Positions 2,202 through 18,729 of a stretch of DNA of 64,000 bases are shown in pieces. Below the pieces are notes generated by a model. The model was not told the DNA's origin and searched no databases. It worked only from the letters and a program-made list of their open reading frames with translations. Origin of the DNA: Candidatus Poribacteria bacterium (GTDB taxonomy: Bacteria; Poribacteria; WGA-4E; WGA-3G); contig PYJC01000170.1 of the NCBI GenBank assembly GCA_003635255.1, positions 2,500 through 66,499 on the forward strand, written 5' to 3'. Each line of letters opens with the position of its first letter. The stretch's first letter is position 1. The position numbers were made by a program, and so were the translations under genes.

Positions 2202-2355
2202 TCGGAACTATAGGTGAAAAAGATTGGAGTTATCGAAAGTATCAATTAACTTCGATTAATCCTTGACAATTTTTGCAGTCGGAACTATAGGTGAAAAAGA
2301 TTGGAGTTATCGAAAGTATCAATTAACTTCGATTAATCCTTGACAATTTTTGCAG
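2202..2355 (+). repeat. Perfect tandem duplication, 2 x 77 bp, each unit containing a TTGACA -35 box
   Basis: Unit tcggaactataggtgaaaaagattggagttatcgaaagtatcaattaacttcgattaatccttgacaatttttgcag at 2202-2278 and 2279-2355; the second copy is followed by a TATCAT -10 about 17 nt after TTGACA. Confidence 0.9.
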
Positions 2356-2481
2356 AAAATTGTATCATTTCCGTTAAATAAGAAAACTACCTTTAAGATT
2401 CACGAGGCACCGCGCACAACAGGTCTAAAAAACCCGTTGGCAACGCCAAATGAAGGAGATGTACTTAGAAGGAGATTTACC

Positions 2482-4161
2482 ATGAAAACCCGGATTTCGA
2501 TTTTAAGCGTAGTATGCCTCATCAGTTGTTTTGTAATCGCTGGGTTAGCAACCCCCGCGAATGCAGACCACGATTATTACGCAGACCGGCTGAGTCGCGA
2601 GCATCGCGTCGCAAGCGATGTTGATGAATGGATAGAGCGCGGGAACGCAACGATTACCGCCAGTCCCAGATTTGAGGATGGCGTTCGACTCACCGCCTGG
2701 GCAAGTGACACTCAGAACGCAGAAAACTACGAATTCGCAATTGCCAGCGCGGTATATCTTTTTGAAATTCCAGCAGGAACGCAGTATATTGAAGTTTTGG
2801 TGCGATACCGAGGCGAACCCCATCGACTCGAAATCGAAGATTACGATGAACCCATCGCCGGTCGCGCATGGATCCGCAATACTAAACGCGAGACAACACG
2901 TCGCGGCTATTACGACGAAAACGCTAAAGAGACACGTTACGGCGATACCTTTGTCCTCCGAGCAAAAAACCGCTCTGAACACATTAAGATCCCCGCCATC
3001 GGTCACGTCAAGGACGGATGGATGGAGCTGCATATTGTCGCTGAAGGTGGCGAACAGATTGACGTAGAATATCTTGAGGTCTCCACGTATCGTAGACAAC
3101 CGAAAGTTAGAGTGATTCAACGCTACACACCGACTTACCGGTGGCGCCCTTGGCACCGTTATACCTATCTTTACTTTTACGACGGTCCCATCTATTACGC
3201 GACGGACTACGACTACTATCTCCGATGGAGCTACCCCATCTACGATCACCACTATCTCTCAATCCGCTCGTATTACGGTGGGTACCTCGGACGCTACCGT
3301 GCCTACTATCCAAGTTCCTACTATCGCTGCTATTCACCATATTATTATAGCGGTTCAAGAAGTTACTACGGTGGTACGCCAAAAGTTTATCAGCGACGGA
3401 CGCAATTGAACCGGTGGAGTGCTAAGCATGAAACAACGCGCCGACAGTACAGTCGTAGCCGATTATCTGCTAACAATCAAAGCGGCAATCGAACAGCAGT
3501 ACGGAGAAGCGTCCGCACCACACTCGAAAATCATCGAAGACAGACACCTGCAACAACGGATCGGATTGCGCGCCAGTCTATTATCACGCAGAAACAGCGC
3601 GCCCGCGCTTCCACTTCAACGCTCCGCCAAAGCAAGGTAAGACAGAGCACTTACGCCTCCGAGAGCACAAGAAGTACAAGTACACTCAGTAAGCAGCGGC
3701 GTTACCCTGCGACTACAACACAAAGCGCGAACCGCTATAGCAGTTCAACACAGACACGACGGACGACGCCGCTTTATAGAAACTCAGCACAGACACAACG
3801 GACGACGCCGCTTTATAGACGTTCAACCTCTACTTCAAACCGATCGTTCTCGTCAAGCACAAGTAGTACCTCACGCCCGAAGTATAGAACCACTACTTCA
3901 AATTCGAGTTCGTCTCGCTCGCGATCAAGCATAAGCCGTTCATCCACAAGTTCATCGCGTGAGAGGTCAAGCGTGAGTCGTTCAAACTCGAGTTCAAGTT
4001 CGTCTCGTTCACGTACAAGTGTAAGCCGTTCTTCTTCCACAAAAACACGGACGCGTCCGACGACATCAAGCTCGAGTTCATCGCGTAGCAGCTCAAAGAG
4101 CAGCGACGATGACGATGACGATCGAAGCCGAACAACACAACGGACAAAACGGCGGCGTTAA
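2482..4161 (+). CDS. Secreted protein with a Tyr-rich segment and a long Ser/Arg/Thr-rich low-complexity C-terminus ending in D6
   Basis: GAAGGAG RBS 7 nt before the ATG at 2482; signal peptide MKTRISILSVVCLISCFVIAGLATPANA; YY-rich block; internal DNA repeats at 3760-3830 and 3900-4040; ends ...SSDDDDDDRSRTTQRTKRRR. Confidence 0.7.
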   Translation: MKTRISILSVVCLISCFVIAGLATPANADHDYYADRLSREHRVASDVDEWIERGNATITASPRFEDGVRLTAWASDTQNAENYEFAIASAVYLFEIPAGTQYIEVLVRYRGEPHRLEIEDYDEPIAGRAWIRNTKRETTRRGYYDENAKETRYGDTFVLRAKNRSEHIKIPAIGHVKDGWMELHIVAEGGEQIDVEYLEVSTYRRQPKVRVIQRYTPTYRWRPWHRYTYLYFYDGPIYYATDYDYYLRWSYPIYDHHYLSIRSYYGGYLGRYRAYYPSSYYRCYSPYYYSGSRSYYGGTPKVYQRRTQLNRWSAKHETTRRQYSRSRLSANNQSGNRTAVRRSVRTTLENHRRQTPATTDRIARQSIITQKQRARASTSTLRQSKVRQSTYASESTRSTSTLSKQRRYPATTTQSANRYSSSTQTRRTTPLYRNSAQTQRTTPLYRRSTSTSNRSFSSSTSSTSRPKYRTTTSNSSSSRSRSSISRSSTSSSRERSSVSRSNSSSSSSRSRTSVSRSSSTKTRTRPTTSSSSSSRSSSKSSDDDDDDRSRTTQRTKRRR

Positions 4162-4203: not shown

Positions 4204-4785
4204 GTGAAGCCCATATATCAAATGCGATTTTTGCTAATTATCTTATTACTGTTATTCAGCCTCCACGCCAGCTTTGCGCAGGAGGCTGAAAACAGCACAG
4301 AAGCCGAACAGCAAACGACAGAAACGGCGGAACAAGTTAAACTTGTTTCACCAATCGGTGCTATGGTGCGTTCTGCCGTTTTTCCGGGATGGGGACAGTT
4401 TTATAGTCGTAGTTACTTCCGAGGGAGCCTTACTGTCTTGGGAATAGGAGGTTCCGTTATCGGTGCTTTGTTGGCACAACAATCCTTTAGAAACCGGTAC
4501 GATGCTTATGAAGATCTGGTTTGGCAAGGTTTCCATAGTGAAGAAACAGTATTAGAAAGTTACGAGTATGCAAACCAGAGGTATAAACTCAGGACATTTT
4601 TTATGTATACTGGCATCGGTATTTGGCTTTATAGCCTTATCGATTCTTATGTGAGTGCCAACTTTCATAACGCAACTACCCTGATTCAGTCTATTGAACA
4701 GGATGTACAAGATTCCGAAAAATTTGGGATTGAAATGAGTGCAACCCCTTCACGTCTTTATTTTGGTATTGTTAAAACTTTTTGA
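4204..4785 (+). CDS. Exported or membrane protein with a PGWGQFY motif (DUF5683-like, name uncertain)
   Basis: GTG at 4204 or ATG at 4222; hydrophobic N-terminus and a later TM segment; motif VFPGWGQFYSRSY. Confidence 0.45.
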   Translation: MKPIYQMRFLLIILLLLFSLHASFAQEAENSTEAEQQTTETAEQVKLVSPIGAMVRSAVFPGWGQFYSRSYFRGSLTVLGIGGSVIGALLAQQSFRNRYDAYEDLVWQGFHSEETVLESYEYANQRYKLRTFFMYTGIGIWLYSLIDSYVSANFHNATTLIQSIEQDVQDSEKFGIEMSATPSRLYFGIVKTF

Positions 4786-4803
4786 AACGGGAGAGTGTTT
4801 ATT

Positions 4804-5373
4804 ATGTCCAAAACTTTTGCAAAAGTCAGCAGTGTCCTCATCTTACTCATCTTACTAGTAAGTTTTATGGGGTGTGGAGACGCTGATAAAGTCGGAGAAA
4901 TTCCAACTGAAGAACTCCTTCAAATTAGTAACGTCTTAGATCGATGGCGGGAAGGTTATGAAACAGAAGATGTTAACACCTACATTAACACCTTCTGGGA
5001 AGATGGCTTCCTTTATGTTTCGGATATGGGAACAGACGGCGATAAAACAGACGATGTAGAATTTGATGACATTCGGCAGGAACGAGCTGCCGCGACTCGG
5101 GTCTTTGAACGGTTTCAGGATATTGAGATAGAACTCTCTTCTCCGCCGGAAATTCAGATGAATGAAGATGGCACAGAGGCGGAAGTACGGAACCACTATA
5201 GAATCCAGTTTTTTGTATCAGATGGTCAAACGCTTGAAGGTGGATATACCGGGGCATACGCCGAAGGAGATAACCTCTTTATCTTTGAAAAAAGAAACGA
5301 GGAATGGCGCATAGCCGAGTGGCATGACGAAGCCTTTAACGAAGAAGAAATTCGCATTGCCAATAACTTATAG
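4804..5373 (+). CDS. Lipoprotein with an NTF2/SnoaL-like (DUF4440-like) fold
   Basis: Lipobox LVSFMGC; about 190 aa, acidic; the W/F/Y pattern is typical of NTF2-like proteins. Confidence 0.5.
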   Translation: MSKTFAKVSSVLILLILLVSFMGCGDADKVGEIPTEELLQISNVLDRWREGYETEDVNTYINTFWEDGFLYVSDMGTDGDKTDDVEFDDIRQERAAATRVFERFQDIEIELSSPPEIQMNEDGTEAEVRNHYRIQFFVSDGQTLEGGYTGAYAEGDNLFIFEKRNEEWRIAEWHDEAFNEEEIRIANNL

Positions 5374-5433: not shown

Positions 5434-6849
5434 ATGCCGCAACAGGAGGAACATCTACGTGATTATCTTCAACTCATCCGAAAGCATGACTTTACGATCT
5501 GCCTCAGTGTCCTACTGGTATTAGGAACCGCTCTCATTATCTCGCTCCGTCTACCTAAAACCTATGCCGCTTCAACCTTAATGTTATTCGTCCAACCCAG
5601 TGCTACATCTTCCCTGTCTTCCGCAAGCCTGTTTCAAAATGTCCTCTCTGGTGGTGTTGATCGACGAGAAATGGAAACAATCAGCACCCGATTTTCTACA
5701 GATTCAATGCTAAATATAGCAATCGAGAACCTTGAGGAGAATGGGCATGCAGAAGCAGTGACCCTTTTCCCACCAGTAGGTAAACTCAAACGAATGCTGA
5801 AGGCACAAGTCAACCCAGACTCCGATTATATTCATCTTTCGCTTGCCTTGGCTGAGGCAGAAGGTGGTGAACGGAATGCAGCACTCCTTGTCAACCAACT
5901 CGCAAGCGATATGCAAATGTTGCGACGTAGAGATAAAGAAACGAAACTCAAAAAACGCGTGGAGCTCATCGGAGATAAACAACAACAAGTCATATCGAAA
6001 TTGGAGAAAGAATCAGACGAACTGCTCAAATTCGTTCGCGAAAATGGAAGCCCAGAAACATGGGTGCCTATTCTGACTAATTTGCTCGAACGCCATGCCA
6101 ATGTCCAAGAAAAAATTGCGGTCAATCAACAGCAACTTTATGCAACGCGCGCCTATATTACACATCTACAAGACCAACTAAATCACTTACCTAAACAAGA
6201 ACAATTATCCGAAACCACTTCCCATAACCCCGTCTGGCTTTTTCAGCAGGAAAAACTCTTCAATCTTGAATCGCAGCGCGTCGCGGATAGAAAAAAAGTA
6301 GGTGCGAATCCATCAAAATTAGAAGGTCTCAACGCACAAATTGACGAAATAGAGAAAAAAAACAAGGATACCTCCCCTATAACTACCACCGCCACTGCCG
6401 GCATCTCCGCACATTATACCTATATACAGAATCAGTTAACAACATCTCTCCCCACCCTCTCAAGTTATGAAAATGCCGAAGAACACCTCAAACGGGAACT
6501 TGATAGCATAAAAACCCAACTGGCAAGGCTATTAATAGAGATCCCCGAAAACCATACGATCCTTACACAAATACAAACCAAGATTCAGAAAATGAATCTG
6601 GTCGCTGAAGAAATTGCTAAACGGTCACTTGAAGCAGAAATATTATATGCCGAATCTAAACTGCCAACCTCTCGTAATCAGATAGGTGGTATTGAAGTCA
6701 TCGACCGCGCCGCACCAAAGAAAATTCCTGTCACCCCGCAACTTAAACTTATTTTTCTTATCGCAGGAATCGCTGGTTTAACTTTAGGTGTTACAGCGGC
6801 TTTGTTCATCGAATATTTTAATAGGACTGTTGTGAACTTAAAAAACTGA
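5434..6849 (+). CDS. wzz: Polysaccharide co-polymerase / chain-length determinant (Wzz/GumC family, no kinase domain)
   Basis: N-terminal TM after the RKHDF region, a long coiled-coil periplasmic region and a C-terminal TM LIFLIAGIAGLTLGVTAALFIEYF; PCP topology. Confidence 0.65.
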   Translation: MPQQEEHLRDYLQLIRKHDFTICLSVLLVLGTALIISLRLPKTYAASTLMLFVQPSATSSLSSASLFQNVLSGGVDRREMETISTRFSTDSMLNIAIENLEENGHAEAVTLFPPVGKLKRMLKAQVNPDSDYIHLSLALAEAEGGERNAALLVNQLASDMQMLRRRDKETKLKKRVELIGDKQQQVISKLEKESDELLKFVRENGSPETWVPILTNLLERHANVQEKIAVNQQQLYATRAYITHLQDQLNHLPKQEQLSETTSHNPVWLFQQEKLFNLESQRVADRKKVGANPSKLEGLNAQIDEIEKKNKDTSPITTTATAGISAHYTYIQNQLTTSLPTLSSYENAEEHLKRELDSIKTQLARLLIEIPENHTILTQIQTKIQKMNLVAEEIAKRSLEAEILYAESKLPTSRNQIGGIEVIDRAAPKKIPVTPQLKLIFLIAGIAGLTLGVTAALFIEYFNRTVVNLKN

Positions 6850-6871
6850 ACATCCCATTCGGAAATATTTA

Positions 6872-6900
6872 AAGCCTCGATTTCGGTTCGAGGCTTTATT
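6872..6900 (+). terminator. Rho-independent terminator after wzz
   Basis: aaagcctcg-atttcggtt-cgaggcttt hairpin followed by an AT-rich run. Confidence 0.6.
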
Positions 6901-7704: not shown

Positions 7705-10700
7705 ATGAACAGGCTAAAACAATCAATTGATGTTTTACTTGTAGCGACCTGTATCCTGAGCGCTTTTGTGCTTTACGGTTGTGGGGCACAAAGCCTTGGT
7801 CCACAAGAACCCCTATTGCCAACGATTGAGGGGAGTTCTAAATTCTCAGCGCGTTTCCAGTTAGAAGAAGAACCCCAATTCTTCTATGACCTGTTTGGAA
7901 AAGAGCTGCTTGAAGGTAACGAGGTCTACAACTATCGCGAGCAGAAAGAGTTTGACCAGAACGGTGAATTGTTTGTTGGTTGGACAGGACAGCTGGATAG
8001 TGAAAGATTCTCGGCACAGCTCGATAGAACGGTCTTAACTGAAGACAGTTACCGTGGAAGATACACCGAATTTGCTATTGGCGACCATTTGCGCTTCAAG
8101 CCATCTACGTTATTCCCGAACCGTTACATCCTCTACAAAACAGAATTTGACGGACTTCGATGGGATATCTCTTTCGCGCAGGAGCGGCACCTTTTCACGC
8201 TTATCAATTCCCGTATTTCAAACCCCGTCCAATTGACAGATGCAGCGGCGAACCTCGCACCAACGCTCGGTCGTCGGAACGGTCTGAATGAGGACGCAGG
8301 CGTACGGCATATTGAAAACGCACGCCTCGTGGGTTTCCGAGCACAAGGGCTTTTAGGCGACATCTTCCGTGTCGGGTTCACTTATGTCAATCTTCATAAA
8401 GAACACCCGGAACGTGTTGAAAACCCACTCATGGGTACCGTAGCAAATACACCACCAGAATCAATCACAGTTGTCTTCCGCGATGATTCGCCCGAAGATA
8501 ATCATGGAACTGTCACCGTATTCTCAGGTTACGACCCGACATTACATGGCGATAATATTCAGGGCGGTGTCGGTGCAGCTTTCAAAACTATGAAAGTTAC
8601 AATTGTCACCCAAGGCTTGGAAGAGTTAACACCTGAAGACATTGAGGAAGGGGTCGAACCTAAGGCACTCCCTTCGGAAACCATAACTGAAACCCTGGAC
8701 GGCAGTAATGTAATCGCGATGCCTGTCGGTGGACTTCCTTCTGATATCCGAGATTCTGAAGATGGAGACGGGTGGAAAATCGTGGACGGCTTCAATAAGA
8801 TGAAAGTTGTTCTCGTTTTTGTGGATCCAGATGGTGCACCTTCTCCCGATGTCGCACAACTCCTTTCAGAAGGGGCATACCAAATTGATGCTGATCCCCG
8901 CACGGTTCAATCCGTCACCTTTGAGATGGTTGTAGCGGGCGATTATAACATTGCTATTATTGGAAACAGCCCTGCAAACAAAGCCGAATCAGACCCGGAA
9001 ATCCAAGAGTGGATTAAAACCGAAGATGGCCACATCCAGATGCCCTACCGTGATATTATTGAAGCACCCGGCAACTATGGGCAATCCTCAGATTACACCA
9101 GCAACCGAGCATCACTCAAAGACAAACCGAGTGAATGGACCGGTGAAGGTAGACCGCGTAAAGTCCGTTATCAATACGGTGCAGCACGCGCAGCACTCCT
9201 CTACGGGCTTGACTTAGAAGGCACTATCGGCAACGTTTTTGTCCGAGCTCACTATTCCATTAACGGTAAATATAAGCAATATCCCACCATTCCCAAAGAG
9301 CAGATTGGATTTAGCCGGCTCAAAACGACCATCCTAAGCGAAGATGGCGAAGAAGAAACCGGTATTTCCATCGACCCCGCAACAGGATTACCCTTAGATG
9401 CAAACGGAGTCCCCACATACTCTGAAACCGAGGGTGAACGATTTGAAGCCATGTTAGGTGGCGACGGAACCGATGAAAGCGGCGACGGAACAATGGGTAG
9501 AGAAACCGCATGGTTCGTCCAACTCAAATCTCGATTCGGGAAACTGTATCTTGAAGGGGTCTATTATCATATCGATCCCGGATACACAACAACCTATCTC
9601 AACTTCGGTTCTAATACTGATAGGGATCAGGAATACTCCTTAGAGCGGACACCCGCATCACAGGCAGAACAAGATCCATGGGATGAAGTCAATTACGCCC
9701 TCATTGAAGATGATGATGATGATGACGACTGGCCCGATGATGACGACTTCGACGGAGTCTTACCACGCGCTGATGACAGAGACCAGAACGGCGTTTTGGA
9801 TTTCCAAGAAGACTTCCTCATCTTTGATGCTGATCCGCCGGTCTTCACCGACCTTGTTGATCTGAACAACAACGGTACAATTGATTCTCTTGAGGACGAT
9901 TTTGAACCGCAGTATGAGTACGGAATAGACAGGGAAGGCTACCACGTTTTCGCCGAATATGACCTCCTTGATAACCTTTCACTTAAAGTCGGATGGCTTA
10001 ATGAAAACGAGGTCTCAAGTCGCCGGAAAAATGATTCCAAATACCTACATGTCACCTATCAGCGTGACATTCCAGACTTTGGAACAGTCCTCTTCCAAAA
10101 CCGATTTGTCCGAGTTCAAGACGATATCCCGGACTATACCATTACATTGCGTGTCGGTGAATTGGAACCCGTCCAAATTTCCGACGAACTTGATTTCTAC
10201 AATGCTCGTGTGAATACCACAACACTTCAGTTCCTTTATACCGCTGTTCCCAACCTCACACTTGAAGCCAAATTCCTCGTTGTACTGCAAAAACAGTTTG
10301 AGCAGGATGAGGAAGGGGCAATCTTCCTTGATGTTGAGGGATCAGGAGACGAAGGCGATCCACTCAACGCCGATCAACGTGTTGACTTTATGGTCCCCGT
10401 TGAACAGGTTCGGGCTGGTGGTGAAAGACGGGAATTCCCGTTCTATCCAGACCACGGGATTAACGCACTGGATCCCGAGGATCCCGGCTTAATCTATGAC
10501 CCCGAAAACTGGAAAAAGCGGCGTTATCCGGAACGCGATATTCGCAACCAGCAGACAATTCTCAAGGCGAGATACGAGATCCCACTCGGTGAACTCCCGT
10601 TCGTTGACAGAATCGGTGAAGATTTAACACTCACACCGATGGCGAAGTACATCTGGGATCGCGCATTTGACCGAGCATCTGAGGAAATTGGCGAAGCACT

Positions 10701-11085
10701 CAACCCACGTCAGTTCGTGCCTACTGATATCGAACCCGTCGAATACTTACGCTTCAATCGTAGAAGTCGTGAAGATGTACTCGGCGTACGGCTTGACTAT
10801 CAGTTCTCGCAAAGGATGAATATTCTTGGCGGTTTCCAATACCGGAAATTCACCAACCGGGATAATAATTTCAAAAATTATTTGACAAACTTCCCGGAAG
10901 ATGAAGATGTACCAGTCCTCTATCGACCGGACTTGAGAACTCGAATCTTTGAAGTTCAAGCGATCAACCGCGGTGAATGGCTTGGGTTCAACATCGTCAT
11001 CCTTGCTGGTTACCGGCGAACCACTATCTTGCTTGATCACACGACGAGTAACACTACCTTCGTGCGAGCAATGATGGGTTTCTAA
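7705..11085 (+). CDS. Large outer-membrane lipoprotein, predicted beta-barrel, with acidic thrombospondin-type-3/EF-hand-like calcium-binding repeats
   Basis: AGGAGG RBS; lipobox LYGC; D-rich blocks DDDDDDDWPDDDDFDG, DDRDQNGVLDF and DLNNNGTIDSLEDD; C-terminal ...VRAMMGF ends in Phe, as in OM beta-barrel signatures. Confidence 0.6.
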   Translation: MNRLKQSIDVLLVATCILSAFVLYGCGAQSLGPQEPLLPTIEGSSKFSARFQLEEEPQFFYDLFGKELLEGNEVYNYREQKEFDQNGELFVGWTGQLDSERFSAQLDRTVLTEDSYRGRYTEFAIGDHLRFKPSTLFPNRYILYKTEFDGLRWDISFAQERHLFTLINSRISNPVQLTDAAANLAPTLGRRNGLNEDAGVRHIENARLVGFRAQGLLGDIFRVGFTYVNLHKEHPERVENPLMGTVANTPPESITVVFRDDSPEDNHGTVTVFSGYDPTLHGDNIQGGVGAAFKTMKVTIVTQGLEELTPEDIEEGVEPKALPSETITETLDGSNVIAMPVGGLPSDIRDSEDGDGWKIVDGFNKMKVVLVFVDPDGAPSPDVAQLLSEGAYQIDADPRTVQSVTFEMVVAGDYNIAIIGNSPANKAESDPEIQEWIKTEDGHIQMPYRDIIEAPGNYGQSSDYTSNRASLKDKPSEWTGEGRPRKVRYQYGAARAALLYGLDLEGTIGNVFVRAHYSINGKYKQYPTIPKEQIGFSRLKTTILSEDGEEETGISIDPATGLPLDANGVPTYSETEGERFEAMLGGDGTDESGDGTMGRETAWFVQLKSRFGKLYLEGVYYHIDPGYTTTYLNFGSNTDRDQEYSLERTPASQAEQDPWDEVNYALIEDDDDDDDWPDDDDFDGVLPRADDRDQNGVLDFQEDFLIFDADPPVFTDLVDLNNNGTIDSLEDDFEPQYEYGIDREGYHVFAEYDLLDNLSLKVGWLNENEVSSRRKNDSKYLHVTYQRDIPDFGTVLFQNRFVRVQDDIPDYTITLRVGELEPVQISDELDFYNARVNTTTLQFLYTAVPNLTLEAKFLVVLQKQFEQDEEGAIFLDVEGSGDEGDPLNADQRVDFMVPVEQVRAGGERREFPFYPDHGINALDPEDPGLIYDPENWKKRRYPERDIRNQQTILKARYEIPLGELPFVDRIGEDLTLTPMAKYIWDRAFDRASEEIGEALNPRQFVPTDIEPVEYLRFNRRSREDVLGVRLDYQFSQRMNILGGFQYRKFTNRDNNFKNYLTNFPEDEDVPVLYRPDLRTRIFEVQAINRGEWLGFNIVILAGYRRTTILLDHTTSNTTFVRAMMGF

Positions 11086-11428: not shown

Positions 11429-12427
11429 ATGATTCGTTTTAGTTTCGTTTTAATGCTAATTGCTTGTGTCGGTATGTCTACTGGCATCGCTTTTGCGCAA
11501 GATGATGCAAGTGGTGGAACCGTCCGAGGCAATATTGTTGACACAACCACAGCACAGAACCCGATTCCAGAGGTTCAGGTCAAGATCGTTGCTACAGGCG
11601 GGGAAGAATATGAGGCAATGACAGATGCCAATGGCGAATATGAAAAAACTGGTGTCCCCGCGGGCCGCTACCTTATCAGTATTTATAGAGAAGGATATGG
11701 CGACCGGCTCGGAAAACCTGTCACAGTCGTTAATGGCGGTGATCACTTCGTACCGCTCAAGATGACCAAAAAGGATAACATTGTTACCTTCTTCCAGAAG
11801 TTTGGATTCGTCTTCTGGCCACTCGCCCTCTGCTCTATCACGGCGTTAACCTTCATTATTGAAAGACTTTTCACCTTTGTCCGGAGTCGTTCCCGAATCG
11901 GAACTGAACAGTTCATCGCCAGTATCGCAGACTCATTGCGAAAAGAGAACATTATGGAAGCCGTCTCGACTTGTGAAGAAGCCGGCGGTCCACTTGCCAA
12001 TGTCCTTAAAGCCGGGTTACTGCGATACAGCCAAGCCCAGATCGAGGAACGCGATATTAGCAAAGAAGAAATTCAGGAAGCCATTGAGGAAGCAAGCCTG
12101 CTTGAAATCCCCGAACTGGAAAGAAATTTGCCGGTTCTCGGTACAGTCGCTGTTGTTTCGCCGCTGTTCGGTTTGCTCGGAACGGTTACAGGTATGATTA
12201 GTGCGTTTACCACAATCGCACTCGAAGGTACCGGTGACCCGCAGCAGCTCGCAGGTGGTATCTCACAGGCACTCCTCACAACTGCTGCTGGCTTGACAGT
12301 TGCTATCCCATGTTTGATTTTCTTCCAACTTTTTGATAGCTGGGTCAACAGACACATGGTTGAAATTTCACAGGTTTCTACCGAAATTGTCAATCAACTG
12401 ATTGTTGGTGAATCTGGCAACGCCTAA
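11429..12427 (+). CDS. exbB: ExbB/TolQ/MotA-family proton channel with an N-terminal signal peptide and a carboxypeptidase-regulatory-like (CarbopepD_reg) domain
   Basis: AGGAGG RBS; MotA_ExbB core ...VLGTVAVVSPLFGLLGTVTGMISAF...AGGISQALLTTAAGLTVAIP; the N-terminal roughly 110 aa beta-sandwich-like segment VRGNIVDTT...GRYLISIYREGYG. Confidence 0.8.
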   Translation: MIRFSFVLMLIACVGMSTGIAFAQDDASGGTVRGNIVDTTTAQNPIPEVQVKIVATGGEEYEAMTDANGEYEKTGVPAGRYLISIYREGYGDRLGKPVTVVNGGDHFVPLKMTKKDNIVTFFQKFGFVFWPLALCSITALTFIIERLFTFVRSRSRIGTEQFIASIADSLRKENIMEAVSTCEEAGGPLANVLKAGLLRYSQAQIEERDISKEEIQEAIEEASLLEIPELERNLPVLGTVAVVSPLFGLLGTVTGMISAFTTIALEGTGDPQQLAGGISQALLTTAAGLTVAIPCLIFFQLFDSWVNRHMVEISQVSTEIVNQLIVGESGNA

Positions 12428-14226: not shown

Positions 14227-17200
14227 CTAACGCTTCTTCCGCTCCCTCCGAGTTGCAGCTCTCCTTTTCAGTTGGACAGGCGCCGGAAGGGGCGGTGGCG
14301 GTGGTGTTACAACCTTCCAAAAGTGCGGCAGGAACGCTTCCCAATTGGTGAGAATATTTTCGGCATGCTGACTCCCAGTATACGCTGCGTGGTTTTGTAT
14401 AAGTGCCATCAGGCTCTTAACATCTGCTTCACTCTTCACCTTTTCTATTTTCACCCAATCCGGATTGAATTTTTGCTCAAACTGCTGTTTCTCGTCCAGA
14501 ACATAGGCGGTCCCACCTGTCATCCCGGCTCCAAAGTTTCTACCCGTTTCACCGATAACCACAACTGTACCTGCGGTCATGTACTCACAGCCATGATCAC
14601 CGACACCCTCAACGATAGCAGTCGCGCCGCTATTTCGGACGCAGAACCGTTCACCAACTCTACCCGCTGCATAGAGGGTCCCGCCCGTTGCTCCATATAA
14701 GACCGTATTTCCAATGATCGCATTCTCACAAGTTTCAAACGATGCAGTTGACGCGGGTTTGATAATAAGTTCCCCGCCTGCCATACCTTTGCCAACATAG
14801 TCATTGGCTTCCCCTGTCAGCACGAATTGTACGCCACTGATACAGAAAGCACCGAAACTCTGTCCGGCACTTCCCTCAAAATTGCACTGAATTGTTCTAT
14901 CAGGTAAACCCGTATCGCCATAACGTCTCGCAATTTCACCAGATAACTTCGCCCCAACTGTCCGGTGCGTGTTCCGAATAGAATAAAAAAGTTGGACCGA
15001 TGTTTTCTGCGAGATTGCTTCCGCTGCATCCTCCAGAATCTGATCATCCAGCGGAATATCCTCCCGGTCATTCCGTTCCTGCAGATGATAGCGAGGTTGC
15101 GTACCGGTTGGATCGGCAGGTGTCAGAATTTCGCTCAAATCAAGTGTTGCAGCTTTTGGATAATCTGCGAGGTCAATCGGTTGCAGCAATTCGGGACGAC
15201 CAATAATATCGTTCAAGCATCTGTGCCCGAGATTCGCGAGAATCGCTCGAACCTCATTTGCGACCCCCAACATGAAGTTAATAACCATCTCAGGAGTCCC
15301 AGGATACTTCGCACGGAGTGCCGGATCCTGCGTGGCGACCCCAACAGGGCAAGTGTTCAGGTGGCATTGGCGCGCCATCACGCATCCGGTTGCTACCATC
15401 GCTATTGTGCCAAAACCGTATTCTTCTGCCCCTAACATAGCAGCGATGACAATATCACGTCCTGAACGCATTCCACCGTCTGCCCGCAACACAACGCGAT
15501 CTCGTAATTCGTTCTCCACGAGCGCACGCTGCGTTTCTGAAAGTCCGAGTTCCCAAGGTGTTCCTGCGTTCTTAATAGAACTCAGCGGTGAGGCACCTGT
15601 ACCCCCCTCATGTCCACTCACTTGGATGACATCGGCGTAGCCCTTTGCCACACCTGATGCAATGGTTCCAACCAAAAATTCAGACACAAGTTTCACAGCA
15701 ACCTTTGCCTGGGGATTCGCCTGCTTCAAATCATAGATGAGCTGTGCCAAGTCCTCAATAGAATAAATGTCGTGGTGCGGTGGCGGTGAAATCAACGGAA
15801 CTCCCGGCACAGAATGTCGGATAGAGGCGATTTCAGCGGTTACTTTGTGCCCCGGAATCTGTCCGCCCTCCCCAGGCTTAGATCCCTGCGCCATTTTGAT
15901 TTCCAATTCCTTCGCCGAAATCAGGTATGTTGGTGTGACACCGAAACGTCCGGATGCCACCTGTTTGATAGCACTCGAAGCAAGATCACCGTTCGGCTGT
16001 TCCTTGAAGCGAGTAGGACTTTCACCACCTTCTCCACTACCGGATTTTGCACCAAGGCGGTTCATCGCGATTGCCAAAGTCTCGTGTGTCTCACGGCTTA
16101 GTGCACCGAAAGACATACTTCCGGTTGTAAAACGCCGAACGATATCCTCCGCGGGTTCTACCGCCTCAATTGGGATAGGCGTGCTTGGCTTGAATGCAAC
16201 CAAATCACGTAAACTCGAAGGTTCACCGCTCTCAACAGCGTCAACATATTCCTCATAATCTTCCGACTTACCTGCCTTGACGAACTTGTGGAGTGATTTA
16301 AACACTGTCGGATTAAAGGCATGGAATTCGCCGTTTCTACGGAATCGGAAGTAGCCTGCTTCTTCAAGCGACGTGTCGTCTTCACTCCCTGAAAACGCTT
16401 TTGTGTGGAAATGCAGCGTCTCAGCAGCGATTTCAGCAAATCCGATACCACTTAATCGTGAAGTGGTCCCTGTAAAACACTTATCAATAACTGTAGCGTT
16501 GATACCGAGTGCCTCAAAAATCTGGGCACCCCGGTAACTTGATACCGTCGAAATCCCCATCTTCGCCATAATCTTCAAAATACCTTTTTCGACGGTTGCC
16601 TTATAGGTTTCGATCGCTTCCGCCGCTGTGAGTCCTGCAAGTTCATCATCCTCAGCGAGCTGAACAATCGTTGAAAGCGCGAGATAAGGATTGACCGCCG
16701 CTGCCCCATAGCCGATCAGGACAGCAAAATGGTGTTCTTCCCTCGCATCCCCGGTTTCAGCGATAAGGCTTACCCGCATCCGCTTTCCTTCTCGAATCAG
16801 GTGGTGATGGACAGCACCCACAGCAAGTGCCATCGGAATCGGTGCAGAATCAGGACTGACATCTTTATCGCTCAGCACGAGAAGCGTGATGCCTGCATCA
16901 ACTGCCTCGGAGGCACGCTGACATAACGCCTCCAGTGCGGTCTCCAAACCTTGTTTACCGGCGGACACTGCGAAACAGACAGAAAGTGTCGCTAGCTGAA
17001 AATCTGGTATATTGAGATCCCGTAATACTTGTAAATCTGCATTTGTTAGGACAGGTGAGGGAATCCGAATGAGTCGAGCGTGCGCTTCAGTTTCTGTGAG
17101 CAAACTATGCCGTCGTCCGAGGTAAGTTGTGAGGGACATCACTAAACGTTCACGGATTGAGTCAATAGGCGGATTTGTTACCTGCGCGAAGCGTTGTTTG

Positions 17201-18729
17201 AAGTAAGTGTAGAGCGATCGCGGGTGCCGAGAAATCACAGCAGGCGGCGTATCATCACCCATTGAACCGACCGCTTCCTTTGCTTCCGTTACCATGGGCT
17301 TGATAAACCGTTCCACATCCTCAGTCATATAGCCGAACGCTTTCTGGTACATCGGCAGCTGCTCAGGAACAGCATCCGTTGTAGCAGAAGCAGCATCTTT
17401 TTCGGTCGGAAGTGTCACGACCCCTTTCTGTACCCATTCGGCGTATGGTTTCTGCGCAGCAACACGATGCTTAATTTCCGAATCCTTCAGTAACTTTCCT
17501 TGTGCTGTATCGACAGCGATCATCTGCCCCGGTCCCAAACGCCCTTTTTCCACAACACAACTGTCGTCAAGTTCAATGATACCGACCTCAGAACCCATGA
17601 CAACGGTTCCATCTTCCGTGACTTTGTAGCGCGCAGGTCTTAAGCCGTTTCTATCCAGACTCGCGCCAACGACAACACCATCCGTAAACGCGACCGCCGC
17701 CGGTCCGTCCCAAGGTTCGCTGACACATGAAAGATACTCGTAACAGGCTTTAAGCACATTCGGCATATCCGGAATCTGTTCATACGCCTCCGGGATCAGG
17801 CACATCATGGCATGTAGGATATCGCGGTCAGAATGTGTTAATAACTCTAACACGTTATCCAAACTCATCGAATCGCTTCCGTGTTCATTGATTATGGGAA
17901 CAAGTTTTCGGATATGTTCGTTCCAGAGAGGTGACTGCAAATCGGCTTCGCGTGCCCGCATCCAATTTCGATTGCCCATTAAGGTGTTGATTTCACCGTT
18001 GTGTGCAAGCGTATGGAAGGGTTGAGCGAGCATCCACGTCGAGGAGGTGTTCGTACTATAACGCTGGTGGAAAACAGCAAGTGCTGCCTCAAAATCTGAA
18101 TCTTTTAAGTCCAGATAAAATTGCGCCAGCTGCGGTGCTACCAGCAACCCTTTGTAGACGACCGTCCGATGTGAAAAGGAGGCAATATGGAATTCATCAA
18201 GCCCCGCCGCTGTGATACGATGTTCTAACGCTTTACATATTAAATACAAACATCTCTCAAAGGCATCGTCTGTTAGTTGCTCCGGTCGCCCGACCAATAC
18301 CTGTTGAATTTCCGGCATTGTCTCTAAAGCTTTGGTCCCAAGCGCAGAAAGATCCAGAGGCACCGAACGCCATCCGAGGAGCGGAACACCGTACTGTTGT
18401 AAAGTCTTCTCAACAAGTGCACGTCCCTGTGCCAATGCCTTTTCGTCGTGTCGCGGGAGAAAAATCATCCCGACACCCATGTCATTTACCGAATCAAGGT
18501 GGACTCCGAGTTTCCCAAGTTCTTTTTGAAATAATTTTTCTGGAATTTGTGTTAAGATACCTGCCCCATCGCCTGTTTTCGCGTCCGCCGCCACCGCGCC
18601 TCGATGCGTTAAATTCGTGACCGCTTGCGTCGCCATTTTGATAATCTCATGGCTCCGACTTCCGAGGCGGTTCGCGACAAAACCTACACCACAGGCATCT
18701 TTTTCATTCACATTGTTGTACATTTGCAA
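14227..18729 (-). CDS. gltB: Glutamate synthase large subunit (GOGAT alpha: GATase-2, central FMN and GXGXG domains)
   Basis: 1500 aa; N-terminal Cys1 amidotransferase CGVGFVANRLGSRSHEI; overall GltB architecture; unusual C-terminal Pro-rich/basic tail; no gltD small-subunit gene adjacent. Confidence 0.92.
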   Translation of the reverse strand: MQMYNNVNEKDACGVGFVANRLGSRSHEIIKMATQAVTNLTHRGAVAADAKTGDGAGILTQIPEKLFQKELGKLGVHLDSVNDMGVGMIFLPRHDEKALAQGRALVEKTLQQYGVPLLGWRSVPLDLSALGTKALETMPEIQQVLVGRPEQLTDDAFERCLYLICKALEHRITAAGLDEFHIASFSHRTVVYKGLLVAPQLAQFYLDLKDSDFEAALAVFHQRYSTNTSSTWMLAQPFHTLAHNGEINTLMGNRNWMRAREADLQSPLWNEHIRKLVPIINEHGSDSMSLDNVLELLTHSDRDILHAMMCLIPEAYEQIPDMPNVLKACYEYLSCVSEPWDGPAAVAFTDGVVVGASLDRNGLRPARYKVTEDGTVVMGSEVGIIELDDSCVVEKGRLGPGQMIAVDTAQGKLLKDSEIKHRVAAQKPYAEWVQKGVVTLPTEKDAASATTDAVPEQLPMYQKAFGYMTEDVERFIKPMVTEAKEAVGSMGDDTPPAVISRHPRSLYTYFKQRFAQVTNPPIDSIRERLVMSLTTYLGRRHSLLTETEAHARLIRIPSPVLTNADLQVLRDLNIPDFQLATLSVCFAVSAGKQGLETALEALCQRASEAVDAGITLLVLSDKDVSPDSAPIPMALAVGAVHHHLIREGKRMRVSLIAETGDAREEHHFAVLIGYGAAAVNPYLALSTIVQLAEDDELAGLTAAEAIETYKATVEKGILKIMAKMGISTVSSYRGAQIFEALGINATVIDKCFTGTTSRLSGIGFAEIAAETLHFHTKAFSGSEDDTSLEEAGYFRFRRNGEFHAFNPTVFKSLHKFVKAGKSEDYEEYVDAVESGEPSSLRDLVAFKPSTPIPIEAVEPAEDIVRRFTTGSMSFGALSRETHETLAIAMNRLGAKSGSGEGGESPTRFKEQPNGDLASSAIKQVASGRFGVTPTYLISAKELEIKMAQGSKPGEGGQIPGHKVTAEIASIRHSVPGVPLISPPPHHDIYSIEDLAQLIYDLKQANPQAKVAVKLVSEFLVGTIASGVAKGYADVIQVSGHEGGTGASPLSSIKNAGTPWELGLSETQRALVENELRDRVVLRADGGMRSGRDIVIAAMLGAEEYGFGTIAMVATGCVMARQCHLNTCPVGVATQDPALRAKYPGTPEMVINFMLGVANEVRAILANLGHRCLNDIIGRPELLQPIDLADYPKAATLDLSEILTPADPTGTQPRYHLQERNDREDIPLDDQILEDAAEAISQKTSVQLFYSIRNTHRTVGAKLSGEIARRYGDTGLPDRTIQCNFEGSAGQSFGAFCISGVQFVLTGEANDYVGKGMAGGELIIKPASTASFETCENAIIGNTVLYGATGGTLYAAGRVGERFCVRNSGATAIVEGVGDHGCEYMTAGTVVVIGETGRNFGAGMTGGTAYVLDEKQQFEQKFNPDWVKIEKVKSEADVKSLMALIQNHAAYTGSQHAENILTNWEAFLPHFWKVVTPPPPPLPAPVQLKRRAATRRERKKR

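Follow-up and report, generated by a model that had tools for sequence, protein, structure and literature searches.

What would an exported bacterial protein do with a tail of some 200 residues built largely from serine, arginine and threonine? The question is raised by a gene in a 64,000-nt stretch of Candidatus Poribacteria DNA (contig PYJC01000170.1, positions 2,500 to 66,499; hereafter, the window). Its coding sequence (2482–4161 of the window, plus strand) is a complete open reading frame (ORF), with an ATG at 2482 and a stop codon at 4159–4161, and the product of 559 aa is 100% identical to the NCBI hypothetical protein C6499_20670 (Candidatus Poribacteria). An earlier inspection of the letters (hereafter, the sequence-only reading) had described the ORF, a signal peptide, a Tyr-rich stretch, an S/R/T(/Q) tail, a run of six Asp and a basic patch, all of which can be read in the sequence. 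The finding is real and unusual, and its eukaryote-like flavour is superficial. Our best explanation, to which we give a probability of roughly 0.42, is that this is an abundant envelope or matrix protein whose folded head binds glycan and whose polycationic tail binds polyanions. What is new is the architecture; a jelly-roll module for binding and a disordered polycationic tail are both known elements. No other ORF of at least 100 aa in the 64-kb window has a 60-aa stretch with at least 60% S/R/T.

The gene is single-copy in the poribacterial species representatives recovered, and in Poribacteria the head of its product is better conserved than the products of the neighbouring genes. A Shine–Dalgarno sequence (AAGGAG, 2469–2474, plus strand), read directly, lies 7 nt ahead of the ATG. 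Judging from its Sec-type signal peptide (aa 1–28; 2482–2565, plus strand), the protein is exported, as had been proposed. The signal peptide reads MKTR, then ISILSVVCLISCFVIAGLA, then TPANA before D29, and shows a basic n-region, a hydrophobic h-region with a 19-residue core and an A-x-A cleavage site. This pattern is kept in homologs, with A28 and D29 invariant in those aligned, and AlphaFold2 (AF2) placed a helix at 4–22 followed by low confidence at 24–30. A lipobox-like LISC (aa 13–16; 2518–2529) lies inside the signal peptide as a putative alternative cleavage site. C12, S15 and C16 are invariant among 15 aligned sponge-poribacterial sequences, while the rest of the hydrophobic core varies. 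More distant family members are without the Cys and show plain A-x-A sites, and lipobox-type N-termini occur in the distant members P0169, P0174, P0183 and P0189. Lipoprotein processing of the target protein via LISC may be an alternative.

Sorting signals at the other end were sought as a C-terminal motif with a hydrophobic helix and a basic cluster, or as a folded beta-sandwich C-terminal domain (CTD) of ~80 aa. PEP-CTERM, LPXTG, MYXO/GlyGly-CTERM and type IX secretion system (T9SS) CTD signals were not matched, the basic cluster alone being present; the last 200 aa are 5.9% hydrophobic, include no hydrophobic stretch and are predicted to be disordered. The basic tip is unsupported as a general sorting signal, the sole other window ORF with such a tip being a cytoplasmic glutamate synthase.

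The head was modelled in an AF2 run on aa 1–335 with a 57-sequence family alignment (predicted local distance difference test score (pLDDT) 85.5, predicted template modelling score (pTM) 0.83) and in a separate full-length model. Residues 35–214 (2584–3123, plus strand) are predicted to form a beta jelly roll resembling carbohydrate-binding modules (CBMs), with pLDDT mostly 85–98; the beta-sandwich of the aa 1–335 model covers aa 36–214. Foldseek comparison of this segment with the PDB returned CBM6, 61, 15, 11, 27 and 86, Eph ligand-binding domains and Cry domain III, at E ~1e-4, probability 1.0, target-normalised template modelling (TM) score 0.5–0.6 and ~10% identity. The CBM matches among the top hits had E-values of 7.5e-5 to 1.5e-3, and the modelled domain accords with a CBM-type beta jelly-roll fold. 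The target would thus have the fold of aa 35–214 in common with these proteins and is, by prediction, extracytoplasmic and aromatic-rich. It differs from CBMs in its ~10% identity and in having an extra Tyr/Trp-rich subdomain, two helices, a polycationic disordered tail and no attached catalytic domain. Sequence searches were empty: Pfam (E of 0.1 or better), NCBIfam and the PDB gave no match to the protein, Pfam gave none, CBM families included, to 24 diverse family members taken one by one, and the PDB gave none to the family profile.

The jelly roll is followed by an aromatic, Tyr-rich subdomain (aa 215–285; 3124–3336, plus strand; motif W.PW..YTY.YFY.GP.YY), modelled at pLDDT 80–95 as a helix (224–232), a strand (237–249) and a second helix (256–275) packed on the beta-sandwich. 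Tyrosine makes up 33% of aa 215–300 and reaches 27–37% in 30-aa windows, and Y229 and Y233 are nearly or fully invariant across the whole family. Two conserved closing helices (aa 314–353; 3421–3540, plus strand; pLDDT 74–94), with the motifs L.RW[ST]..HE..R..Y.R.R and VR..L..HR, span 314–328 and 334–353 in the full-length model. That model predicts order up to about aa 355 and leaves aa 357–559 at pLDDT <50 and without secondary structure. The AF2 models thus join jelly roll, Tyr-rich block and helices into one folded head (aa 35–355), and by these models only aa 357–559 are disordered. The sequence-only reading, which had called for such a disorder prediction, divided this region into a roughly 220-aa domain and a Tyr-rich block. 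The Tyr richness stands, whereas the separate segments give way in the models to one folded unit up to about aa 355; nor does the block behave as a low-complexity segment, since it is predicted to be folded and, with a ratio of nonsynonymous to synonymous substitution rates (dN/dS) of 0.08, comes second only to the jelly roll in conservation. Order was judged by AF2 confidence, since charge–hydropathy (Uversky) classification proved uninformative: the Tyr and Arg content of the folded core led it to class even that part as disordered.

The tail (aa 357–559) consists of 33% S, 18.2% R, 18% T, 5% Q and 3.4% Lys, has 5.9% hydrophobic residues and carries a net charge of about +35 over its ~200 aa. 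Its polycationic S/R/T portion, predicted to be disordered (aa 357–541; 3550–4104, plus strand; pLDDT <50), includes the motifs KQRRYP, TTPLYRR and STKTRTRPTT. It is followed by the Asp6 run (aa 542–547; 4105–4122, plus strand), encoded by (GACGAT)x3, and by the basic C-terminal tip RSRTTQRTKRRR (aa 548–559; 4123–4158, plus strand), so that the protein's end reads ...SSSKSSDDDDDDRSRTTQRTKRRR, the last part being DDDDDDRSRTTQRTKRRR. The internal repetition noticed earlier in the tail DNA is real. A 39-nt unit is tandemly duplicated (two copies, 3736–3813, plus strand), encoding YSSSTQTRRTTPL and YRNSAQTQRTTPL, and a degenerate unit of ~45 nt occurs three times at 3898–4034. Among the 15 aligned sequences, the 39-nt duplication is limited to the window protein and P0003.

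A total of 317 close homologs were found, and down to 79% identity the alignment still shows tail, D-run and terminal TKRRR. For a set of orthologs we took the best 80 of 160 relatives from a scan of genome contigs, all Poribacteria and at species level, to which the window protein was added. All 81 have an intact ORF of 516–572 aa, the length changes being exclusively in-frame indels. An acidic run of at least three residues and a K/R-rich final pentapeptide are likewise present in 81/81, and the pentapeptide is TKRRR in 62 of them. Nei–Gojobori dN/dS was 0.05 for the jelly roll, 0.08 for the aromatic block, 0.12 for the helical linker and ~0.18 for the tail. Because serine in the tail is encoded by all six of its codons, the tail is not a slippage-driven microsatellite. 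It is under purifying selection and genuinely coded. The sequence-only reading had named a frameshift or a non-conserved tail as what would overturn it, and neither applies, since the tail is kept in 81/81 orthologs at dN/dS ~0.18. It had rightly taken the minus-strand ORF at 3813–4040 for an echo: this open antisense stretch of 114 codons compares with 87 +/- 26 in codon shuffles of the tail, and it is a by-product of the S/R/T codon composition rather than a gene. Two metagenome-derived members, P0067 (441 aa, ending ...FFVWYQ) and P0072 (444 aa, ending ...LLFEHE), stop early inside the tail; these ends are either assembly frameshifts in a low-complexity region or genuine truncated alleles.

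To place the protein in a wider family, aa 30–335 were used as a HMMER query in an exhaustive scan of 1.84 billion cluster representatives, which gave 93 clusters (clustered at 50% identity); these are 290–810 aa long and reach as low as 27% identity. In a 5.8-billion-protein index, a full-length profile of distant members gave 20 matches, low-complexity words swamping the search, and a trimmed-domain profile gave mostly short or partial proteins. The members with named sources come from sponge Poribacteria and from metagenome-assembled genomes (MAGs) of Planctomycetota, and one cluster joins a Candidatus Poribacteria MAG with a Tara ocean sequence. By sequence comparison, the protein founds an uncharacterised bacterial family spanning at least two phyla (Poribacteria, Planctomycetota and others). 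In the literature, we found no specific report of a polycationic exported protein in Poribacteria or Planctomycetes.

Family members have a signal peptide or, in some cases, a lipobox-like Cys signal instead. They share the head motifs DEW.ERG.A.VT.SP.F..G.RL.AW, YGDTF.L and LE.H..A..GQ..DV.Y and the aromatic motif Y.YTY.YYY.GP.Y, and R42, S61, R69, Y109, E182, H184, D194, Y229 and Y233 are near-invariant even in very distant members. The tails are S/R/T-rich in Poribacteria and P/A/R-, Q- or G-rich elsewhere, and they range from ~0 to >500 aa, the shortest members ending right at the closing helices. Over 62 full-length representatives, the tail is net positive in 61, Arg is the final residue in 44, and at least two K/R stand among the last five residues in 57, with an acidic run near the end in just 19. 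Since tails across the family are almost always net positive and Arg-terminated, while S richness gives way to P/A, Q or G, charge, and not Ser/Arg chemistry, is the selected property of the tail. At locus L091 (10015–11397), PGA_cap (CapA-like poly-gamma-glutamate capsule) genes lie just 3' of P0151, a member with a Q-rich tail. Poly-gamma-glutamate is a polyanion, and this single case may be coincidental.

The gene is also expressed. The target region corresponds to the published 'BMC-A' (bacterial microcompartment) region of poribacterial single-cell genomes, and the ortholog in single-amplified genome (SAG) 3G is POR3G_00343 (IMG 2265142948; L006 10001–11596), with 1596 nt encoding 531 aa plus stop. 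In three Xestospongia testudinaria metatranscriptomes, its mean was 882.6 fragments per kilobase per million (FPKM), 1.13x the housekeeping mean (PMC5087111 supplement). The corresponding means were 780 FPKM for housekeeping genes, 205 for the upstream PduM-like gene, 436 for the DUF5683 gene and 646 for the SnoaL-like gene (Jahn et al. 2016 supplement), and thus the ortholog's transcript was ~4-fold above that of its upstream neighbor. A sigma-70-like promoter candidate (TTGACA, 17 nt, TATCAT; 2340–2368, plus strand; 11/12 matches) lies ~110 nt 5' of the target gene. Expression from the gene's own promoter is supported by this site together with the difference in transcript level (883 versus 205 FPKM). 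A unit of 77 nt is perfectly duplicated in tandem (2202–2278 and 2279–2355, plus strand), the copies being 100% identical and each ending in a TTGACA box. Other poribacterial genomes (L002, L005, L018, L021 and others) carry the unit once, ~125–200 nt 5' of the start codon, which indicates that this duplication of the promoter region is recent in the present lineage. An Rfam scan of the 5' region (2050–2600) gave no match.

How head and tail might work together can be sketched as follows. The head would dock on a glycan, which may be the cell's own envelope, exopolysaccharide or an environmental polysaccharide, with surface aromatics supplying stacking contacts as is usual in carbohydrate-binding modules. 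The polycationic tail would hold polyanions electrostatically, in the manner of a tether or glue; these might be acidic or sulfated polysaccharides, extracellular DNA, anionic lipids or the surfaces of minerals. The broader roles suggested in the sequence-only reading, namely matrix binding, adhesion and the binding of mineral or nucleic acid, are plausible as well. At the end of the tail, the acidic and the basic patch could allow tail-to-tail or tail-to-ligand zippering, with zwitterionic self-association in Poribacteria, and the Ser/Thr richness would be the poribacterial route to a flexible hydrophilic spacer rather than a functional determinant.

Several points weigh against binding of glycans and polyanions in the envelope or matrix. 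The likeness of the modelled head to CBMs is at the level of fold alone, with no sequence match to any CBM family, and jelly-roll folds are also found in lyases, hydrolases, lectin-like receptors and capsid proteins. A canonical Cardin–Weintraub heparin-binding motif was not found in the protein. Passage of a +35 tail through Sec would be unusual and is assumed here. The final location may be the periplasm or the outer surface, or the protein may be released. Lastly, the operon that links the gene to a Wzz/GNVR gene is confined to Poribacteria and gives no family-wide functional clue.

Two alternatives, both improbable and on a par with each other, come closest. In the first, the protein binds or templates a mineral (silica or calcium) and so coats or anchors the cell, by way of a zwitterionic C-terminus (Ser run, Asp6 and Arg-rich tip) like that of CotB1 or of poly-Asp/phospho-Ser proteins. 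The end concerned is maintained in all 81 Poribacteria, and an ortholog is highly transcribed in X. testudinaria, which is a siliceous sponge. As described in PMC11818168 (citing Motomura et al. 2016), Bacillus cereus CotB1 is likewise extracytoplasmic, with an Arg/Ser-rich cationic C-terminus behind acidic residues that acts by electrostatic interaction; its zwitterionic C-terminal region (aa 142–171) is essential for spore-coat biosilicification, and its final 14 residues, SGRARAQRQSSRGR, have nanomolar affinity for silica. The zwitterionic, Arg/Ser-rich end of the target (DDDDDDRSRTTQRTKRRR, in 81/81 orthologs) is of the CotB1 type in composition only. The CotB1 tail has 30 aa, as against ~200 aa here, and head domain, organism and compartment differ. 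No CotB1 homology was detected in the searches run, which were general ones and did not set the target directly against a CotB sequence. Since silica is bound in vitro by any polycation, the resemblance is weak evidence. The acidic run occurs in just the 19 of 62 family representatives mentioned above, the family is also found in pelagic (Tara) Poribacteria and in Planctomycetota MAGs, and Pfam/NCBIfam scans of the neighborhood found no silicon-related genes.

The sequence-only reading had likened the tail to silaffins, and here the comparison fails on lysine. Diatom silaffins are also secreted, Ser-rich, cationic and possibly zwitterionic, but they are rich in Lys and need polyamine modification of this residue as well as phospho-Ser (PMC11818168). 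The target has 3.4% Lys and 18.2% Arg in its tail and lacks Lys-rich KxxK repeats.

The second alternative, no more probable than the first, makes the head an enzyme, such as a small jelly-roll polysaccharide lyase or hydrolase, and leaves to the cationic tail only the task of holding it on an anionic substrate or the cell surface. Near-invariant polar residues in very distant members and the very strong selection on the head (dN/dS 0.05) speak for this reading, jelly rolls do include lyase and hydrolase families, and some distant loci adjoin sulfatase, GH16 and alpha-L-fucosidase genes. Those glycan-degrading neighbors, however, are encoded on the other strand and do not recur as partners. 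Non-catalytic binding modules head the 50 Foldseek matches listed, in which there is no lyase; where glycoside hydrolases appear, the alignment covers the same ~150–190 columns, about what a single jelly-roll module occupies. No enzyme family was matched by sequence in the Pfam, NCBIfam and PDB searches.

Much less likely is a host-directed effector, in which the tail would mimic an arginine/serine (RS) domain, its terminal KRRR would serve for nuclear localisation, and sponge nuclei or RNA processing would be the target. TKRRR at the C-terminus looks like a nuclear localisation signal of the monopartite type, RS/SR dipeptides cover 44% of one 50-aa window, and the ortholog is highly transcribed inside the host. 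Sponge symbionts are also known for eukaryote-like proteins (PMC3909097). RS domains of SR proteins comprise at least 50 aa with >40% RS in consecutive dipeptides; against the 44% of the best 50-aa window stand 18% RS/SR coverage of the whole tail and a longest alternating run of 5 residues, and the comparison points both ways. The target does not have the one or two N-terminal RNA-recognition motif (RRM) domains of those proteins: the Pfam scan found no RRM or other eukaryotic domain, and the N-terminus is modelled as a beta jelly roll. Eukaryotic SR proteins are similarly Ser/Arg-rich, disordered and basic; the target differs from them in its export by a bacterium, in Thr being as common as Arg, and in family counterparts that are not Ser-rich. 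The same architecture, with tails that are not S-rich, occurs in pelagic (Tara) Poribacteria and Planctomycetota, and Pfam/NCBIfam scans found no secretion-system gene or signal beyond Sec. The 'eukaryote-like RS domain' of the sequence-only reading is thus mere compositional resemblance.

Less probable still is a part in the 'BMC-A' microcompartment or propanediol system, or in RhoGEF-type signalling. The first idea comes from position, the gene standing directly behind BMC-H, PduL and PduM-like genes in 78/80 poribacterial loci. In the window, the published 'BMC-A' core comprises a BMC-H shell protein (307–582), the phosphotransacylase PduL (656–1360) and a 244-aa protein only weakly similar to PduM and TIGR02536 (1383–2117), all on the plus strand, and no further microcompartment enzymes were seen within the first 12 kb. 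A signal peptide is, however, incompatible with encapsulation in a cytoplasmic microcompartment, and a cargo protein would be cytoplasmic, with an encapsulation peptide and with shell genes beside it across taxa. The gene moreover has its own promoter-like site and a transcript 4-fold above the upstream gene, and BMC genes are lacking at nine loci outside Poribacteria. The second idea comes from the published annotation, POR3G_00343 being listed as a hypothetical protein with a COG5422 'RhoGEF' match (Kamke et al. 2014, Table S2) and later termed an 'outer membrane-predicted RhoGEF' (Jahn et al. 2016). No RhoGEF/DH, PH or other domain was matched in Pfam (at the threshold above) or NCBIfam. 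The predicted fold is a beta-sandwich jelly roll, not the helical DH fold, and just Ser-rich low complexity is common to the target and RhoGEF. COG5422 itself is built on a yeast protein with long Ser-rich regions. On these three grounds the label is most likely a compositional, low-complexity artefact.

Almost certainly wrong is the idea that the tail is an artefact (frameshift, assembly error or non-coding low-complexity DNA): the early ends of P0067 and P0072 do point to an error- or mutation-prone region, but 81/81 independent species-level assemblies hold the frame to the same C-terminal motif, and the tail shows purifying selection, conserved short motifs and a transcribed ortholog.

Downstream of the target gene on the plus strand, domain matches identified a DUF5683 membrane protein (4204–4785), a SnoaL-like protein (4795–5373) and a Wzz/GNVR chain-length-determinant-like protein (5434–6849), the last followed by a terminator-like hairpin (11 bp) and a T-run (6870–6898, plus strand). 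Given the promoter-like site ahead of the target and the hairpin after the Wzz-like gene, these genes probably form a four-gene operon with the target first and Wzz/GNVR last. The order target, DUF5683, SnoaL-like, Wzz/GNVR is kept in 76–79 of the 80 poribacterial loci. Extra DNA was seen at three loci: ~0.9 kb in L024 and ~2.3 kb in L078 separate the target from DUF5683, and ~1.3 kb in L044 separates DUF5683 from the SnoaL-like gene. At the nine loci outside Poribacteria (4 Planctomycetota, 5 other lineages), the target gene is monocistronic amid unrelated neighbors and no conserved-neighbor linkage was found, so neighboring genes were rejected as a family-wide clue to function. The context therefore gives at most a lineage-specific hint to exopolysaccharide or envelope biology, and none for a microcompartment role.

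After the Wzz/GNVR gene, Poribacteria encode a large unknown protein and then TolQ/ExbB. In the window, the former is a 1126-aa protein (7705–11085, plus strand) with an N-terminus of signal or lipoprotein type, an extended acidic segment (EDDDDDDDWPDDDDFDG...) and no Pfam/NCBIfam match; it is 71–99% identical in the 67 poribacterial loci whose DNA extends that far. A TolQ/ExbB-like gene (11429–12427, plus strand) lies directly 3' of it, and the 1126-aa protein may be the outer-membrane partner of a TolQ/ExbB-like energy-transducing system. Further along, the glutamate synthase large subunit (14227–18729, minus strand; GATase_2, Glu_syn_central, Glu_synthase and GXGXG domains) has an unusual C-terminal extension that is Pro-rich and polybasic, ...PPPPPLPAPVQLKRRAATRRERKKR.

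Of the sponge symbionts still uncultivated, Poribacteria rank with the most abundant, and this gene has so far been labelled 'hypothetical' or, misleadingly, 'RhoGEF'; the present analysis takes an erroneous functional label out of the published 'BMC-A' region model. A bolder proposal, which we consider unlikely, is that there is a widespread 'Arg-tailed jelly-roll' family in Poribacteria and Planctomycetota whose zwitterionic or polycationic disordered tails drive surface coacervation, the deposition of minerals such as silica, or the capture of sulfated or acidic polymers. If true, the protein would be, in function, a bacterial counterpart of silaffin/CotB1-type or mussel/sandcastle-worm adhesive proteins, present at housekeeping-level abundance in sponges. 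The recurrence of the design in Planctomycetota and other lineages makes it a testable candidate for attaching to, organising or harvesting anionic polymers, and the tail offers a natural example of selection on charge and disorder, not on sequence, in a bacterial extracytoplasmic protein.

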